Shown: positions 10,103 through 27,954 of the stretch, piece after piece
How the letters are laid out: every line of letters starts with the position of its first letter
Position numbering within the stretch: position 1 is the first letter of the stretch
Assembly (NCBI GenBank): GCA_020434365.1
Contig: JAGRAX010000001.1
Location: 8,568-72,567, forward strand
Reading direction: 5' to 3'
DNA length: 64,000 nucleotides
From: Bdellovibrionales bacterium
GTDB lineage: Bacteria; Bdellovibrionota_G; JALEGL01; JAGRMV01
Position numbers and translations under genes: made by a program
The notes under the pieces: generated by a model
Database searches by the model: none
Seen by the model: the letters and a program-made list of their open reading frames with translations, nothing else
Told to the model about the DNA's origin: nothing

Positions 10103-10247
10103 GGTCTATTGTGCTTTCTATGCTTATGAGGCCATTTCTGAGTCATTTTTCAGCAAGAGGAACCTGTTTTTTCTCTTAGTGTAAACTTTTGATTCCATTT
10201 TTTTTGCCGCTTTTTTTTAACTAGTGAATATCATTAAAGCAATGCGC

Positions 10248-10262
10248 TGGCACTGCTTTTGC
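10248..10262 (+). promoter_or_regulatory. sigma-54 (RpoN) -24/-12 promoter
   Basis: TGGCACtgcttTTGCT has an exact GG-N10-GC spacing, a perfect -24 TGGCAC and a TTGCT -12 element. It lies ~320 nt upstream of a sigma-54 activator gene. Confidence 0.55.
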
Positions 10263-10437
10263 TAAGTATATGGGCATGAAACAAAGATCAAAAGAAAATC
10301 GAAGGATGGGAAGAATGATCCCTGATCTTATGGATCGCTAACAAAGGCCTGCAGCACTTGGGTCTTTTCTCTCAAGACTCAAGTTGAGGCCAAGGCCCTC
10401 ACAAGAGGGATTATGGTTACCACAACAACGCAAGTAA

Positions 10438-10472
10438 AAGCCTGAATCGCTACCCTGATTCGGGCTTTTTTC
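10438..10472 (+). terminator. intrinsic terminator or attenuator hairpin
   Basis: 11-bp stem AAGCCTGAATC / GATTCGGGCTT (one G-U wobble) with an 8-nt loop, followed by TTTTTTC. It sits ~175 nt downstream of the sigma-54 promoter and ~100 nt upstream of the activator start. Confidence 0.5.
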
Positions 10473-10501
10473 TTTGACTGCCGAAATAATGCACAAATCG
10501 C

Positions 10502-10531
10502 TTGGTTTTTGCGCACAACATCGCGTAAAAT
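10502..10531 (+). promoter_or_regulatory. candidate sigma-70 promoter for the activator gene
   Basis: -35 TTGGTT, an 18-nt spacer and -10 TAAAAT, ending ~48 nt upstream of the ATG at 10579. Confidence 0.35.
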
Positions 10532-10578: not shown

Positions 10579-12417
10579 ATGGAATATGAAAAAACCCAAC
10601 CGCAGTTCATGGACAAAATTGATGACGAAAAATCCGTCCCTCTTGAAAAATCCTATTTGGTCGCTATGACCGGTCCCCAAGCCGGTACTGTATTCACACT
10701 ATCTGATGGGTCCATGATTGTGGGAAGACAACCGACTGCAGATATTTTTCTTAATGATCATCAGGTCTCTCGAAATCATGCCGAATTTGTCACCAGCATG
10801 GGAGAAACGCAGGTCCATGATCTGGGCTCAACCAATGGAACCTTTCTCAATGGAGAAAAACTAGAAAAAAAAGTGGCGATCTCTGATGGAGATGAAGTTC
10901 AGCTGGGCGCAACTTGTTTTCGATTTTCGATTCACAACCCCATCGATGGAAATCGACTGGGCCTGAGCAATCACGGATATTTTGAAACGCGTTTGCACGA
11001 AGAACTCGATCGAGCCTCTAGGTACAAACGAGATCTGTCTGTGCTCATGATCAGTCCTGCCATCGATCCCAAAGAAATTTTAGACAAAGCCAAACTCCTC
11101 TCGGACCACTACCCTGACGTCGTTGAAAAAATTCGAGGCATCATTCGCACCATGGATTTGCTCGCGCACTATGGAAAATATGAATTGGAACTTCTTCTGC
11201 CAGAAACATCGAAAAAAGATGCGTTAATTCTAGCAGAAAGAATCTTGGCCGATGCTACTTTTGGAAAAGATGAAAACCTTTCCATTGGAATGGCTTCTTT
11301 TCCGGAAGATGGGCGCACTCCTGACATCCTTTTAGAGCGATCTCGATTGGCTTTGAAAAAAGCTCGAACGGAGAAAAAAACCAAACCCGTTGTAGACTTG
11401 GCAGAAGAAAGACATCGTCTCATTCTTTCCAATGAAAAAGAAGTCATCGTTCGAAGCGAAAAAATGAAGGAGCTTTTTGATGTTATCGAGCGCATCGCCA
11501 AATCTACCATCACCGTTTTAATTCAAGGGGAGACAGGCGTTGGAAAAGAGGTTGTCGCTGAAACCATTCACACCAAAAGTGATCGCTCTAAAGATCCATT
11601 GGTTTGTGTCAACTGCGCGGCGCTTACGGAAACGCTTCTAGAAAGCGAACTTTTTGGACATGAAAAAGGATCTTTCACTGGCGCAGATCAAACCAAAATT
11701 GGTCTTTTCGAAAGTGCCAATGGTGGAACCATTTTTTTGGATGAGATTGGAGAAATGCCGCTAAAAACTCAGGCCAAACTTCTTCGCGTACTTCAAGCCA
11801 AGAAAATCATGCGCGTGGGATCAAACAAAGAAATTAACACCGATGTGCGTATCATTGCTGCCACTAATAGAAAGCTCGAAAAGCAAGTAGAGGAGAAGAA
11901 TTTTCGCGAAGACTTATTCTATCGACTCAATGCCGCTACGCTCACCATACCTCCACTACGAGAAAGGAAAAAAGAGGTTCCCTATCTCGTACAAACTTTT
12001 ATCAAAGAATGCTGTGAAGAAAACGGCATCGACAACAAGGACATTTCACCCGATGCCCTAGATATTTTGATGAAATACTCCTGGCCTGGAAACATTCGAG
12101 AACTACGAAATACCGTAGAGCGCGCCGTTGTCATTTCTGAAGGTGAGACCATTTATAAAGAAGCCTTGACCAGCAGACTCACCTCTGATGTAGATCAGAT
12201 CACTTCTTCTTCTTCGATCGACAATCTAGATGCGGCCGTAGACTCTACCATGGTCGGAGACATGAAAGAGGTCATCGCCGCATACGAAAGAGATCTGATC
12301 ATCAACGCCCTGAAGAAAACGCAGTGGAATCAAACGAAGGCCTCAGAAATTTTAAATGTTCCCAGAAGAACACTGGTCTCAAAAATCAAAAAGTACAAAA
12401 TCAAAGAGGATGAATAG
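10579..12417 (+). CDS. sigma-54-dependent transcriptional activator with an N-terminal FHA domain and a degenerate GGDEF-like domain
   Basis: 612-aa ORF. FHA motifs are ..GRQPTADIFLNDHQVSRNHAEF..GSTNGTFLNGEKL... The GGDEF-like fold reads ..RYKRDLSVLMISPAID..IRTMDLLAHYGKYELELLLPETS... The AAA+ sigma-54 interaction motifs are VLIQGETGVGKE, ESELFGHEKGSFTGA and GGTIFLDEIGEM, and a C-terminal Fis-type HTH is NVPRRTLVSKIKKY. Confidence 0.85.
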   Translation: MEYEKTQPQFMDKIDDEKSVPLEKSYLVAMTGPQAGTVFTLSDGSMIVGRQPTADIFLNDHQVSRNHAEFVTSMGETQVHDLGSTNGTFLNGEKLEKKVAISDGDEVQLGATCFRFSIHNPIDGNRLGLSNHGYFETRLHEELDRASRYKRDLSVLMISPAIDPKEILDKAKLLSDHYPDVVEKIRGIIRTMDLLAHYGKYELELLLPETSKKDALILAERILADATFGKDENLSIGMASFPEDGRTPDILLERSRLALKKARTEKKTKPVVDLAEERHRLILSNEKEVIVRSEKMKELFDVIERIAKSTITVLIQGETGVGKEVVAETIHTKSDRSKDPLVCVNCAALTETLLESELFGHEKGSFTGADQTKIGLFESANGGTIFLDEIGEMPLKTQAKLLRVLQAKKIMRVGSNKEINTDVRIIAATNRKLEKQVEEKNFREDLFYRLNAATLTIPPLRERKKEVPYLVQTFIKECCEENGIDNKDISPDALDILMKYSWPGNIRELRNTVERAVVISEGETIYKEALTSRLTSDVDQITSSSSIDNLDAAVDSTMVGDMKEVIAAYERDLIINALKKTQWNQTKASEILNVPRRTLVSKIKKYKIKEDE

Positions 12418-12429
12418 ATCGGAGGATAG

Positions 12430-13038
12430 ATGAAAAAAATTGTTCCGCAAAAAAATCTGCACGAGTTTTTTTATCAGGAAATTCAATCCATCTTGGCTCA
12501 AGAACCTGACTCTATTGATCCTGCCGCAAGTTTTTATTTGGTCAATCTTCTCTCCACCATCTATCAAAAAAATGAAACGCAGCAATCTGTCATCAATTTT
12601 TTTGATGAACCCTTGGCCTTACTCCTAGCCCGAGCACATCACAGCAATGATCCAGAAGAAAGATTTACGCTCTTAAAGCATTTGGGAGATCGAGCATTAT
12701 ATATTTCTGGATTTTTTGGGGACAGTCTCGGACAAAGTGCGGTGGATCTTGACTATTATATGGCCATGGGTGGGACGGCCTATCGATCTCTTTCTTCCAT
12801 TTCCAAAGAAAAACCCCGACAAAAAAATCTGTCAGAGCTTTTTCAAAGTCTTGCCGCACATTTTGCGCAGCTTGTAGACATCATCTCACAAATCAGCGAA
12901 GCTTCGGGGATTACAAAAAATGAAGACCTCCTTAGACTTTATGAGAGATGGATTCACACCAAGAGTTCTAGACTTTTGCAAAAACTCAAAGATCAAGGCA
13001 TTGATCCACTAGAGCAACATAAAAAAATTCTTCACTAA
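12430..13038 (+). CDS. hypothetical protein
   Basis: 202-aa ORF 12 nt downstream of the activator gene, with a GGAGGATAG SD-like sequence just before it. No recognisable domain. Confidence 0.5.
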   Translation: MKKIVPQKNLHEFFYQEIQSILAQEPDSIDPAASFYLVNLLSTIYQKNETQQSVINFFDEPLALLLARAHHSNDPEERFTLLKHLGDRALYISGFFGDSLGQSAVDLDYYMAMGGTAYRSLSSISKEKPRQKNLSELFQSLAAHFAQLVDIISQISEASGITKNEDLLRLYERWIHTKSSRLLQKLKDQGIDPLEQHKKILH

Positions 13039-13046
13039 GCTTTCTA

Positions 13047-13697
13047 ATGTTGGGGCATTTTTTACATAAACGTCTTGAGTTGATTTATGGAGCTAGCAGT
13101 TCGTTGCGACTACACGATTTTATTCTTCCTCTCAAAGAGAATCAGGTATCAACAGTTTTTATGATAAGAAAAAAAACTGATGTATCCATCGCCGTCGGCC
13201 TGAAACCTCAAATTTTGGAACTCGCAAAGAGCAAGCAGATCTCTCATAGTTCTATGGAAAATTTTTGGGAACTGGTGGAAGAAATTTCTCATTTTACATA
13301 TTTGACTTTTTGTCTACGGATACAGAAACCCATAAGTCTTTTGGATATGGAAATGCAGGGAGAAATCGACAAGTATGTACTCACACAAGATTTGTTTGAT
13401 ACCGATCACACGCTCTACACAAAACTGTTTCACCAGTATTCATTGAGATCGCATTTAAATCCCGAAGAAAAGCAGCGCTACCATACCGCCAATCGATTGG
13501 GGGCAAAATTTATACGAAGTCTGACTCAGAAGAAATACGGACGTTTTTTTTGGTCTGAAGGGCTTTTGCGTAGGTTTAGAGATTTTTATCGAAGAGCATC
13601 TTTCGAAAAATGTCGTTGGGTTGAATCAAAGTTAAGCTTTTATTCCCGCAAGGAAATGGAGAAAATCTTTGCGCAATCAATGAGATCATGTAGGTAA
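13047..13697 (+). CDS. hypothetical protein
   Basis: 216-aa ORF tightly linked to the flanking genes on the same strand. No domain recognised. Confidence 0.5.
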   Translation: MLGHFLHKRLELIYGASSSLRLHDFILPLKENQVSTVFMIRKKTDVSIAVGLKPQILELAKSKQISHSSMENFWELVEEISHFTYLTFCLRIQKPISLLDMEMQGEIDKYVLTQDLFDTDHTLYTKLFHQYSLRSHLNPEEKQRYHTANRLGAKFIRSLTQKKYGRFFWSEGLLRRFRDFYRRASFEKCRWVESKLSFYSRKEMEKIFAQSMRSCR

Positions 13698-13707
13698 GGA
13701 GTCAAGC

Positions 13708-14052
13708 ATGAGCAAAGAACAAAGATCCGTAAAAAGAGTCCCTTTACAAATCAAAGTTGATTATAAATCCGAAGGTAATTTTCTTTTTGAAAATGCTACC
13801 AACATCAGTGAACACGGGATTTTTATCGAAACGGATCAACCTTTGGACCCCGGAACCGTTCTTCAACTTCAGTTTACCTTGCCTGAAACACGCAAGACAC
13901 TCAAGGTCATGGGTAAAGTCAAATGGATCAACCCTTTCCGAGAAAATGCCCAGGAGAATTACAATCCAGGCATGGGTGTGCAGTTTGAAAGTTTGGGAGA
14001 AGTAGATCGAGAAATTCTTCTCAATGCAATCAAACGCATTGCCGTATTATAA
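13708..14052 (+). CDS. PilZ-domain protein (single-domain c-di-GMP receptor candidate)
   Basis: 114 aa carrying an RxxxR motif (RSVKR) and an NxSxxG motif (NISEHG). It is a paralog of the ORFs at 15979 and 27610. Confidence 0.75.
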   Translation: MSKEQRSVKRVPLQIKVDYKSEGNFLFENATNISEHGIFIETDQPLDPGTVLQLQFTLPETRKTLKVMGKVKWINPFRENAQENYNPGMGVQFESLGEVDREILLNAIKRIAVL

Positions 14053-14622
14053 AATTTGCTTTTCTTTCACCTGTATAAGCTCACCCTTGGAGTTATACTG
14101 TATGTCCCATTGCACTTTAATCCCCAGACGATTTTCCGTTTGAAATTCCATCGTAAAATTTGAGCCCTTTTTGATGGGTAAAAAAGCAGCATTTTGATGA
14201 ATGAGTTTAGATTTTGGACGATGAACGCCTACAAAAGTTCGTACAAATTTTTCGTGATCTTCCAATTTTTGTATCTGAAATTTTTTTGCTGCAATCCATC
14301 CATTCCAAATCTTAATCTCTCTCACATCAAAAATTATGTATTCTGATCCAGATTTGCCCAGAACCCAAAAGGGGTTGGGGAAAAAATCCGTCGCACTGAC
14401 AAAGAACAGCTTCTCTTGAGGAAAAAGCGCGATAGATCTTTCGGAAATCAAAAAATTGCATTGCGCGCAAATGGGATCTCTTTTTTTTATGCTTTGCTCA
14501 ATTTTTTCTTGATCTACTGCAACGGCAGAAGAAGTCAAAAAAAGCGTCAGTCCCAACACCCATAAACATGTCTTAGGGATATGCAATGCCCACCTCCAGA
14601 TTCTCATAGACCGTAAACGCAT
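14047..14622 (-). CDS. hypothetical secreted protein
   Basis: 191 aa with an N-terminal signal-like segment (..CLWVLGLTLFLTSSAVA). The true start is probably one of the internal Met, which shortens the overlap with the upstream gene. Confidence 0.45.
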   Translation of the reverse strand: MRLRSMRIWRWALHIPKTCLWVLGLTLFLTSSAVAVDQEKIEQSIKKRDPICAQCNFLISERSIALFPQEKLFFVSATDFFPNPFWVLGKSGSEYIIFDVREIKIWNGWIAAKKFQIQKLEDHEKFVRTFVGVHRPKSKLIHQNAAFLPIKKGSNFTMEFQTENRLGIKVQWDIQYNSKGELIQVKEKQIL

Positions 14623-15877
14623 TTTTTATGCTTGAGGGGGAAAGTTGCCCTCTCTTTTTTTCCTTATTTAAGCGCTCGATGGCTCTGCGGAGACTTCCAT
14701 CTTTTTCTTTTTGAACGTAGACCATCGCCAAAGAAACGAGGTACTTTACCTCATCAGGCGAACTCGCGGCAGGATGGATGTATATTTTTTTGGAGGCGAC
14801 ATCAAAAATAACAGGCTGTTCTGGAAAGAAGTGTTCCAAACGAACAAAATGATCCACATTGACTACAATGTGTGACACCGTCTGCTCCAACAAGCTCTGA
14901 GTCTTTCTTCGTCCCAAAAGAGTCATCAAATTGGAGAAGTTTTTGTTTGCCGCGCGGCTCCATGGACCGCCACTCTGGTCTGTTTTTTGTAAAGACTCAA
15001 AAAACAGATGTTCAAAATCAATTTTAGATTCTGAAACATATCCCATGACCTGATTTGGCGGCAATGCTTCAAAAGATTCGAGTTCTTGCAAAAAGGAATA
15101 ACTACCTTTTTTTTCATACTGACGAGATTTTCCAATCCACCCTAGACCTCCATCCGCAGACATATGGACATTGCTGCTGGCAGCCACCATAAGCTGGGCC
15201 AAGTTTTCAACTGCAGCTCTGGCTGGAGCAAGCGAGCCCCCAGAAGGTGTACACGAGTTCATCATTTTTGCCATAGACACCGCACGATCCATGCCTGAGC
15301 TTCCCGATCCCCCTCCGCCTGCCACGGGATTTTGCTCTCCGCTCATCGCCTGATCCATTAGACGATTCCACTCCAACAGGTCTCCCAGTGATTTTTGCTC
15401 TCGGATGATTTGGTCACGTTGATCTGCCGGGTTATTTTTTTGACCGGGAACCAAACCTTCAAAAGAAAATATGAGCTCTGTCAAACGATCGGAGGAAAGC
15501 GAAGACCAAGATCCCGACCACAAATGGCTCGACACCAATTGATCCGGTGTTTTAACCCCTACAGTGCAGCGCCCTTCACTGTCGATCACCACACGATACT
15601 CGTTTGTCCCCACACGAAAACGGTAGGTACGGGTCGAAAAGCCTGCTCTTTCTTTAAGTTCTTTGGCCAGCAGAGGCTTGTTTCCAGTGCTTTGTAAGAG
15701 CTCGTTGAGCATTTTCTCAATTTTGGCTTCTTCAGCGGGAGTTTTGGCATAGGCCCCTTGAAAACAAGACAAAACCAGAAACGTCATGATCATATGGATT
15801 GTACCCGACTGCTTCATTTGCATTTCCATTGTATCATGCCAAGGGCCTAGATCCCATGCCTTTGCAATCATAGGCAT
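14573..15877 (-). CDS. hypothetical secreted protein
   Basis: 434 aa. A probable signal peptide starts at an internal Met (MKQSGTIHMIMTFLVLSCFQGAYA), and the protein has a Gly/Ser-rich central linker. No domain recognised. Confidence 0.5.
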   Translation of the reverse strand: MPMIAKAWDLGPWHDTMEMQMKQSGTIHMIMTFLVLSCFQGAYAKTPAEEAKIEKMLNELLQSTGNKPLLAKELKERAGFSTRTYRFRVGTNEYRVVIDSEGRCTVGVKTPDQLVSSHLWSGSWSSLSSDRLTELIFSFEGLVPGQKNNPADQRDQIIREQKSLGDLLEWNRLMDQAMSGEQNPVAGGGGSGSSGMDRAVSMAKMMNSCTPSGGSLAPARAAVENLAQLMVAASSNVHMSADGGLGWIGKSRQYEKKGSYSFLQELESFEALPPNQVMGYVSESKIDFEHLFFESLQKTDQSGGPWSRAANKNFSNLMTLLGRRKTQSLLEQTVSHIVVNVDHFVRLEHFFPEQPVIFDVASKKIYIHPAASSPDEVKYLVSLAMVYVQKEKDGSLRRAIERLNKEKKRGQLSPSSIKNAFTVYENLEVGIAYP

Positions 15878-15978: not shown

Positions 15979-16323
15979 ATGATAGAAAAACGTAAATACC
16001 CCCGGATTGAAGCCAAAATCAAAGTGAGCTTTCATAGCAAAGAAGAGCTCTCACTTGAATACACCAGAAACATCAGTGCAGGAGGGATTTTTCTCAAAAC
16101 TGATAAATTGCTCGACCCCAACTCAGAAATTGAACTGACCTTGGACTTACCGGAAAAACAGGGCGAAGTTCAAATCAAAGGAAAGGTGATGAGAGTCATG
16201 AGCATGAGTCATCCAGTGGATCCCGAAAAAATGGTCTACGGTGTGGGGGTCCGTTTCATCAACTTAACTCCAGAAATTTCTGAAAAAATTGAAACCTGCT
16301 TACAAAAACTAAGCGGCTCATAG
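15979..16323 (+). CDS. PilZ-domain protein
   Basis: 114 aa with RxxxR (RKYPR) and NxSxxG (NISAGG) motifs intact. Confidence 0.8.
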   Translation: MIEKRKYPRIEAKIKVSFHSKEELSLEYTRNISAGGIFLKTDKLLDPNSEIELTLDLPEKQGEVQIKGKVMRVMSMSHPVDPEKMVYGVGVRFINLTPEISEKIETCLQKLSGS

Positions 16324-27609: not shown

Positions 27610-27954
27610 TTACTCTTTTTTTAATTTTTTGTACTTTCTGAAAAGCTTTGAAATGATCTGTTTGCCAGCATCATTGAGCTCCATAAACTGAATGCCCATG
27701 CCTTTTCTTTTGCTGGGGTCTTTTTCAACCCACTTTACAATTCCGGTACCTTGGATGCTCTCTTCTTGGTTTTTGACGCGAAACTCAAAATTAAGCTTGG
27801 TCCCTATGGGTTTTGGACTGTTTGTGACCAGGAACAATCCGCCTTCACTTAAATTTTCTAGGAGAACTTGATCCCGTTGATCTTCTTGCGCGAAAAGAAT
27901 CTTTACGTTGCTCTCTAAAAAAATACGGGCAAATTTACGGCGTTCATCAGACAT
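27610..27954 (-). CDS. PilZ-domain protein
   Basis: 114 aa with RxxxR (RKFAR) and NxSxxG (NLSEGG) motifs. Confidence 0.8.
   Translation of the reverse strand: MSDERRKFARIFLESNVKILFAQEDQRDQVLLENLSEGGLFLVTNSPKPIGTKLNFEFRVKNQEESIQGTGIVKWVEKDPSKRKGMGIQFMELNDAGKQIISKLFRKYKKLKKE

Follow-up and report, generated by a model that had tools for sequence, protein, structure and literature searches.

The regulatory half of a sigma-54 activator encoded in a 64-kb stretch of a Bdellovibrionales metagenome-assembled genome (contig JAGRAX010000001.1) is homologous to the entire diguanylate cyclase DgcB of Bdellovibrio bacteriovorus, i.e., to its N-terminal tail, its FHA domain and its GGDEF fold. The activator is a bacterial enhancer-binding protein (EBP), and it probably functions as a DgcB-type two-input gate, in which the tail, the FHA domain and a degenerate GGDEF domain would join a phosphothreonine signal and cyclic di-GMP (c-di-GMP) into sigma-54-dependent transcription. 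An earlier description of this DNA made from its letters only (hereafter the sequence-only reading) had recognized the domains of the protein, and the DgcB origin of its regulatory half goes beyond that description. In what follows, the window is the whole 64-kb stretch, and L-numbered loci are the loci of relatives that were compared with it. The features of the activator gene are the following:

10579..12417, + strand: EBP gene, 612 aa (open reading frame (ORF), Pfam domains, exact database match MCB0325993.1)
10579..10650, + strand: N-terminal tail, residues 1-24, M-E-x-x-K5-T6-x-P8 (conservation; T6 aligned to DgcB T14)
10651..10932, + strand: FHA domain, residues ~25-118, with the phosphothreonine-binding residues G49-R50, S64-R65-x-H67 and S84-T85-N86-G87 (Pfam)
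10933..11388, + strand: degenerate GGDEF domain, residues ~119-270 (Pfam, phmmer, AlphaFold2 model, Foldseek, alignment)
11146..11157, + strand: RxxD motif resembling the inhibitory site (I-site) of cyclases, R190-T-M-D193 (aligns to RESD of TpbB/YfiN)
11173..11187, + strand: pentapeptide G199-K-Y-E-L203 at the GG(D/E)EF position (alignment to solved cyclases)
11239..11241, + strand: codon of R221, 31 residues past R190 (the same spacing as from DgcB R218 to R249)
11446..12195, + strand: sigma-54 AAA+ module and lid, residues 290-539 (Pfam, motif positions)
12283..12396, + strand: Fis-type helix-turn-helix (HTH) domain HTH_8 (PF02954), residues 569-606 (Pfam, E 1e-12)

The 612-aa protein is an NtrC-family sigma-54 activator with an intact core. 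Its Pfam matches comprise FHA (residues 47-110, E 1e-18), GGDEF (residues 128-267, E 3.6e-10, 40.3 bits against a gathering cutoff of 23.8), Sigma54_activat (PF00158; residues 290-455, E 5e-73, covering positions 2-167 of the 168 of the profile) and AAA_lid_14 (E 3.5e-24), and the E-values and scores of the domains in this gene cluster exclude chance by a wide margin. Walker A (GETGVGKE, residues 317-324), Walker B (DEIGEM, 388-393) and the loop that contacts sigma-54 (GSFTGA, 364-369; GSFTGA or GAFTGA in orthologs) are all in place. The sequence-only reading had assigned this combination of FHA, degenerate GGDEF, sigma-54 AAA+ and Fis-type HTH domains to the protein, and Pfam confirms all four, with the FHA, GGDEF and Sigma54_activat models each matching above threshold. 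In NCBI, MCB0325993.1 is named only 'sigma 54-interacting transcriptional regulator', and in NCBIfam the EBP is generically similar to many EBP equivalogs with every score far under its cutoff, which means that no named activator is its ortholog. In three of the relatives' loci the gene is split by frameshifts into two or three called genes (L081, 8001-9845; L082, 7175-9018; L083, 168-2015). These loci lie on metagenome contigs and the tblastn similarity runs through them unbroken, and the frameshifts probably stem from errors of assembly or of long reads and do not mark pseudogenes.

The origin of the regulatory half is clearest from its structure. The top Foldseek match to an AlphaFold2 model of residues 1-293 is full-length B. 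bacteriovorus DgcB (6HBZ, E 2e-19), followed by the FHA domains of GarA and OdhI and by GGDEF domains. DgcB (Bd0742; 6HBZ, 6HC0, 6HC1) has the same parts in the same order, namely a Lys-Thr tail, an FHA domain and a GGDEF fold (PMC6733907). This FHA-GGDEF cyclase licenses prey invasion, and it is activated when its FHA domain binds its own tail at phosphorylated T14, the contacts being made by K13-T14 and by V17 at +3 on the tail and by R61, K72, S75, R76, T96 and N97 on the FHA domain (PMC6733907). In its inhibited state an intercalated c-di-GMP dimer cross-links two DgcB GGDEF domains at the I-site, where it is held by R218 and D221 of the RxxD motif together with T242, V246 and R249 (PMC6733907). 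The EBP has the same phosphothreonine-binding residues in its FHA domain, and its R190/D193/R221 triad is spaced exactly as R218/D221/R249 of DgcB. Because tail, FHA residues and I-site spacing all match, its regulatory half amounts to a complete DgcB-type module minus catalysis. The two proteins differ in that DgcB is an active GGEEF cyclase of ~300 aa, whose DxLT turn and helical linker are lost from the EBP, and in that DgcB lacks the sigma-54 AAA+/HTH output to which the module is fused here.

The tail and the FHA domain bear this out residue by residue. The tail reads M-E-Y-E-K5-T6-Q-P8, with K5, T6 and P8 invariant in the seven orthologs, and the T6 column holds Thr in 52 of 56 standalone FHA-GGDEF proteins, with Lys or Arg at -1 in 32 of the 56; T6 is the candidate phospho-acceptor. 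Residues 1-24 have low pLDDT (the predicted local distance difference test score of the model) and are therefore probably disordered. As the sequence-only reading had it in proposing phosphothreonine recognition, all canonical phosphothreonine-binding residues are present in the FHA domain: R50, S64, R65, H67, S84 and N86 are invariant in all nine aligned members, including those from Myxococcota, and T85 is invariant in the seven orthologs and replaced by Arg in L001 and L025. By sequence the domain is closest to the GarA and OdhI FHA structures (40-45% identity). By analogy with DgcB and GarA, its probable ligand is T6 in the N-terminal tail of the same protein, and not necessarily a foreign phosphoprotein.

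The middle domain of the EBP is a GGDEF fold. TpbB, PleD and WspR are its phmmer matches in the PDB; the model of residues 1-293 (mean pLDDT 85.7, and >90 over most of the GGDEF domain) shows the alternation of helices and strands expected of this fold; and its Foldseek matches to GGDEF structures include 6HBZ, 4IOB, 4URG, 3IGN and 5M3C. Together with the Pfam match, these results answer the doubt whether the domain is GGDEF-like at all. By alignment it is catalytically dead, every catalytic and substrate-binding element having been lost. When the EBP and three orthologs were aligned with nine standalone FHA-GGDEF proteins, the DxLTGLxNR turn was found replaced by RLGLSNHGYF, the linker between the FHA and GGDEF domains shortened by ~13 residues, the metal-binding Asp gone (ISPAID stands in its place), the guanine-binding segment KxxNDxxGHxxGD destroyed by a 9-residue deletion and both glycines of GG(D/E)EF lost. 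At the position of the signature stands GKYEL, as had been proposed, in agreement with the alignment to solved cyclases. The seven orthologs have GK(Y/F)EL at this position and each deeper lineage has a different motif.

The I-site has had another fate. Alignment to active, structurally solved cyclases confirms that RTMD lies five residues (LLAHY) upstream of the degenerate pentapeptide, where the sequence-only reading had placed it; R221 is kept along with it while the GGDEF signature is lost. R221 takes the place of the third primary I-site Arg on the following helix, which is R249 in DgcB and R390 in PleD. Retention was followed through 13 proteins with the fused architecture: the seven orthologs (the window, L081-L084, L088 and L089), the homologs L001 and L025 from Myxococcota reference genomes, which are ~33% identical to the EBP, and four cluster representatives from an exhaustive HMMER search (P0246, P0274, P0365 and P0389), which have the same architecture by Pfam; in P0389 the GGDEF match falls under the Pfam threshold and FHA, Sigma54_activat and HTH_8 are confirmed. 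RxxD is present at the I-site in all 13 fused members against 29 of 56 standalone FHA-GGDEF relatives, and the canonical active-site motif in none of the 13 against 55 of the 56 (as GG(D/E)E(F/Y)). Eight different pentapeptides occupy the GGDEF position of the fused family (GKYEL, GKFEL, ASDEI, GQRDL, AADEF, SQDTV, AGDDY and LPGQF). The residue at +31 is Arg in 10, Lys in two and Glu in one of the fused members, and Arg in 27 of the 56 relatives. Nine deeply diverged sequences agree at only 16 of the 152 positions of the degenerate domain, two of which are R190 and D193; among orthologs, the hairpin of residues 186-210 is 72% invariant compared with 40% over the whole domain. These counts ignore phylogeny, and with about seven independent lineages the naive probability of such retention would be ~0.52^7, or ~0.01. 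A fixed I-site beside a drifting active site is the pattern expected of a c-di-GMP receptor, and supports this role for the domain without amounting to proof.

In the family as recovered, seven loci are orthologous and at least six lineages are deeper, and every member comes from uncultured Bdellovibrionota or Myxococcota. The size given here is a lower bound, as both broad searches were flooded by generic AAA+ or multi-FHA matches: the contig scan by the AAA+ pattern FLDEIGEM, so that it missed close relatives such as L084 and is no gauge of rarity, and the exhaustive HMMER search by multi-FHA proteins, which made up most of its best 150 matches and alongside which at least four further full-length members were recovered.

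Downstream of the EBP gene lie three genes on the same strand, listed here after a promoter that lies upstream of the EBP gene:

10502..10531, + strand: sigma-70-like promoter heading the EBP operon, TTGGTT (10502-10507), an 18-nt spacer and TAAAAT (10526-10531), read from the sequence
12430..13038, + strand: ORF2, 202 aa, all-helical TPR-like repeat protein, with a strong Shine-Dalgarno (SD) sequence GGAGG 7 nt upstream
13047..13697, + strand: ORF3, 216 aa, fast-evolving partner of ORF2
13708..14052, + strand: PilZ1, 114 aa, single-domain PilZ protein of the TIGR02266 family (Pfam, NCBIfam), with a strong SD sequence AAGGAG upstream

The sequence-only reading had seen here a possible operon of two unknown proteins and a PilZ protein following the activator at gaps of about 10 nt, and this picture holds: the gaps measure 12, 8 and 10 nt, the order is ORF2, ORF3, PilZ1, and it is kept in every informative locus of the Bdellovibrionota clade. 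ORF2 belongs to a family of unannotated ~200-aa proteins with 851 matches, and it adjoins the EBP gene in the window and in L081, L082, L084, L088 and L089. ORF3, for which a word-based search gave just 3 matches, follows ORF2 in L081, L084, L088 and L089 and is missing from L082. Its public annotation (KDD52_00100) starts at an internal Met and gives 178 aa; the 216-aa start, which adds the 5' part 13047-13160, is likelier because the protein sequence of these 38 upstream codons is conserved in L084. Lacking an SD sequence and beginning 8 nt past the ORF2 stop, ORF3 suggests translational coupling. PilZ1 (PF07238, E 8e-16; TIGR02266, 82 bits against a cutoff of 68.7) has both c-di-GMP motifs intact (RxxxR as RSVKR and [DN]xSxxG as NISEHG) and is present in every locus that reaches far enough, with identities of 88% in L084, 62% in L082 and 55% in L088. 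Among solved structures, PilZ1 is closest to the PilZ proteins for type IV pilus assembly from Xanthomonas and Pseudomonas (3DSG, 4F48, 7LKQ), which are not known to have the c-di-GMP binding motifs that PilZ1 keeps.

A terminator scan found no + strand terminator in the three gaps, and from this, the SD sequences and the sigma-70-like promoter it follows that EBP, ORF2, ORF3 and PilZ1 are likely to be co-transcribed. The promoter, which a strict consensus scan missed, sits between an upstream terminator and the EBP start codon; its hexamers are conserved in L084 with a variable spacer, and equivalents precede the EBP gene in L081, L082, L083 and L088. In these last four loci the -35 element overlaps the palindrome TGGCGAAAAATCGCCA.

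The four genes may, however, be mere neighbors, an ORF2-ORF3 pair of housekeeping type having landed between the activator and PilZ genes. Homologous pairs do occur with neither an EBP nor a PilZ gene nearby (L086, 7001-8259; L087, 6849-8119), and ORF2 is found alone in L085; because L086 and L087 are distant lineages, ORF2-ORF3 is a widespread, self-standing two-gene module. L082 dispenses with ORF3, and downstream of the deeper EBP-family members lie unrelated genes (IMPDH, SRP54, SmpB), so that the PilZ linkage is specific to the clade and not a property of the family. Against chance neighborhood speak the order EBP-ORF2-(ORF3)-PilZ, which is kept in all clade loci that reach far enough, down to ~59-66% EBP identity, as well as the 8-12 nt gaps, the SD sequences and the absence of a terminator in the gaps, and on balance we regard it as somewhat unlikely.

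Beyond this cluster, a convergent 191-aa ORF (14047-14622, - strand) shares 6 nt (14047-14052) with the stop end of PilZ1, with no terminator between the two. Two further single-domain PilZ genes with intact RxxxR and [D/N]xSxxG motifs lie at 15979-16323 (+) and 27610-27954 (-), and the first of them is syntenic in L082, L084 and L088 together with the next ORF (422 aa) and two convergent ORFs at 14047-15877.

Upstream of the EBP gene, a second promoter appears to drive a separate transcript:

10139..10155, + strand: conserved block TGAGTCATTTTTCAGCA, ~95 bp upstream of the -24 element, shared with L084
10248..10262, + strand: perfect sigma-54 -24/-12 element TGGCACTGCTTTTGC, intergenic, the sole zero-mismatch site in 64 kb
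10274..10476, + strand: candidate sigma-54-dependent small RNA (sRNA), ~200 nt (intrinsic terminator, fold z-scores, conservation in L084)

The element TGGCACTGCTTTTGC lies 330 bp before the EBP start codon, is oriented toward the EBP gene and is conserved in L084 as TGGCATCAGAATTGC. Three other sigma-54-like sites in the window (20795, 45830 and 47734) fall inside ORFs and were set aside. The RNA unit ends in a 14-bp hairpin (10436-10469) followed by a T-run, and its counterpart in L084 (4829-5020), whose EBP is 88% identical, retains the promoter, two 5' blocks and the terminator, the stem of the latter having a different sequence with its pairing retained. Compared with shuffled sequences the unit folds with z = -4.6 in the window and -5.1 in L084, which is mainly the terminator's contribution. 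A short ORF within it does not keep its frame in L084, and no Rfam family matches the unit. It is known from these two sequences, its motifs being found among the retrieved loci only in L084 besides the window. The block ~95 bp upstream of the promoter, given within the unit conserved in L084 as TGAGTCAWWWWTCAGCA, is a possible but weak candidate for an enhancer (upstream activating sequence); no clear conserved inverted repeat was seen upstream of the sigma-54 promoter, this block included, and its motif shows no enrichment elsewhere in the window. The promoter at 10248 and the terminator-ended ~200-nt RNA are a candidate sigma-54-dependent sRNA gene beside the gene of an activator. Small RNAs adjoining the gene of their sigma-54 activator are known from qrr1/luxO, glmY/glrR and pxr/nla19.

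In the mechanism that we favor, a Hanks-type Ser/Thr kinase not encoded nearby would phosphorylate T6, and the phosphorylated tail would dock in the cleft of the FHA domain, either in cis or on the dimer partner, on the model of DgcB and GarA. Docking may re-pack the FHA/degenerate GGDEF pair and thereby alter assembly of the AAA+ ring. Intercalated c-di-GMP at the I-sites would cross-link two degenerate GGDEF domains, as in the product-inhibited DgcB dimer, and would most likely keep the EBP in a non-hexameric, inactive form. The assignment of c-di-GMP as the off signal and of the phosphorylated tail as the on signal is preferred because of the analogy with the locked dimer of DgcB. The most likely direct target would be the perfect sigma-54 promoter 330 bp upstream, driving the ~200-nt RNA. 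The broadest version of this model is a good deal more tentative, and we consider it doubtful as a whole: the EBP would stand for an undescribed class of sigma-54 activators that use a dead DgcB module as a two-input gate and, in this lineage, directly switch on an adjacent sRNA, so that the kinase and c-di-GMP signals behind prey invasion in Bdellovibrio would be wired into a transcriptional and post-transcriptional program.

Several observations weigh against the two-input gate. At the I-site, the +31 arginine is replaced by lysine in two and by glutamate in one of the 13 fused members; the conservation of RxxD could be structural in role; and the GGDEF domain of Myxococcus xanthus TmoK neither makes nor binds c-di-GMP (PMC4877007). 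On the phosphothreonine side, Gln or Lys stands three residues after T6, where DgcB has a hydrophobic Val, and coupling must differ from that in DgcB, whose activation is transmitted by a DxLT turn and a coiled-coil linker that are both deleted here. A six-frame motif scan found no kinase motif in the 64-kb window; nor did it find a phosphatase or c-di-GMP enzyme motif there, leaving the three PilZ genes as the only ones of the kind. As to the surroundings of the gene, the PilZ linkage is missing in the deeper members of the family, and the sigma-54 promoter and RNA unit are absent upstream of the EBP gene in L081, L082, L083 and L088.

The strongest competitor on the side of the sensor is that the degenerate GGDEF domain binds no ligand and serves as a mere dimerization or spacer scaffold between the FHA domain and the AAA+ module, regulation being purely by phosphothreonine and FHA. 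That GGDEF domains neither making nor binding the nucleotide exist, as TmoK illustrates (PMC4877007), that this one is heavily eroded by several deletions and that the +31 residue is not Arg in every member all fit such a role, and the degenerate hairpin HYGK(Y/F)ELE, invariant in the orthologs, hints at a new protein-protein interface in place of nucleotide chemistry. Against it stand RxxD, held in 13 of 13 fused members compared with 29 of 56 active relatives while the active site drifts freely, and R190 and D193, two of the few residues that stay invariant even in Myxococcota homologs of ~33% identity, and we find a ligand-free domain rather unlikely.

The domain could also sense another nucleotide at its active site or I-site, e.g., GTP or 3',3'-cGAMP (cyclic GMP-AMP). 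GTP binding by degenerate GGDEF domains has precedents, such as the regulatory GGDEF domains of GGDEF-EAL proteins. For cGAMP, the Bdellovibrio Hypr GGDEF enzyme Bd0367 is described as a producer (PMC9140294). A GTP pocket is nevertheless unlikely in the EBP because deletion or replacement has removed KxxNDxxGHxxGD and the metal-binding Asp. We know of no evidence of I-sites that prefer cGAMP, and another nucleotide as the ligand is very unlikely. That the EBP is still a weak diguanylate cyclase is barely credible: some non-canonical motifs such as AGDEF are described as keeping activity (PMC3974145) and one fused-family member carries AADEF, but the EBP lacks both glycines, the catalytic Asp/Glu context, the metal-binding Asp and the guanine-binding Asn/Asp.

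The two-input gate resembles several known systems in part. With FleQ/FlrA, FlrC, VpsR, EpsI/Nla24 and BerB, which are tuned by c-di-GMP, the EBP shares NtrC-family AAA+ and HTH domains (PMC10333796, PMC4877007, PMC5552954). FleQ, FlrA and VpsR bind the nucleotide on the AAA+ domain itself, in FleQ through LFRS, R185/N186 after Walker A and ExxxR (PMC10333796). Binding of the FleQ type was considered for the EBP and rejected, since the segment following Walker A reads VVAETIH, with E-T and not R-N, and no LFRS precedes the AAA+ module. FleQ, VpsR and Nla24 also differ in having REC or FleQ-type N-termini, the candidate sensor of the EBP being a separate degenerate GGDEF I-site. Inactive GGDEF domains bearing RxxD act as c-di-GMP receptors in PelD, PopA and Bdellovibrio CdgA. 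SgmT likewise uses an inactive GGDEF domain with RxxD as its receptor (PMC4877007). The outputs of these four proteins are, however, polysaccharide synthesis, proteolysis adaptors and histidine-kinase localization; none is a sigma-54 activator and none has an FHA domain with a phosphothreonine tail.

FHA-type EBPs of M. xanthus, reportedly described by Jelsbak and colleagues in 2005, share with the protein studied here an N-terminal FHA domain on a sigma-54 activator and the passage from Ser/Thr kinase signaling to sigma-54-dependent transcription. In neither these proteins nor FHA-GAF EBPs does a GGDEF fold separate the FHA domain from the AAA+ module, and a conserved self-tail is not reported in either group. 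Two activators of the arrangement FHA-GAF-AAA+-HTH were seen in Acidobacteriota (L004, 6001-7884; L045, 5561-7573), with a GAF domain where the EBP has its degenerate GGDEF domain. GarA and OdhI resemble the EBP in that their FHA domain binds the protein's own phosphorylated N-terminal Thr as a switch; they differ in that they are small metabolic regulators that stand alone and lack domains for nucleotide binding or transcription. We found no GGDEF-containing EBP described in full-text literature searches, in the table of c-di-GMP receptors of a 2023 review or in the paper on DgcB, and the census of 17 GGDEF proteins in M. xanthus mentions no EBP among the ones it describes (PMC4877007).

The components of this protein are thus all known and their combination is new, without a new principle being involved. 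The immediate impact of the finding is for specialists, given a small family known from uncultured Bdellovibrionota and Myxococcota. In the c-di-GMP-responsive sigma-54 activators named in the review (FleQ/FlrA, FlrC and VpsR), the nucleotide is sensed on the AAA+ domain (PMC10333796). If the proposed gate is correct, a recycled GGDEF I-site would provide a second, independent route from c-di-GMP to sigma-54-dependent transcription, and would be a clear example of the product-inhibition site of an enzyme turned into a receptor. Moreover, because the module derives from DgcB, the same phosphothreonine signal may govern both gene expression and c-di-GMP synthesis, and such a shared signal would offer a concrete handle on the kinase pathway that activates DgcB.

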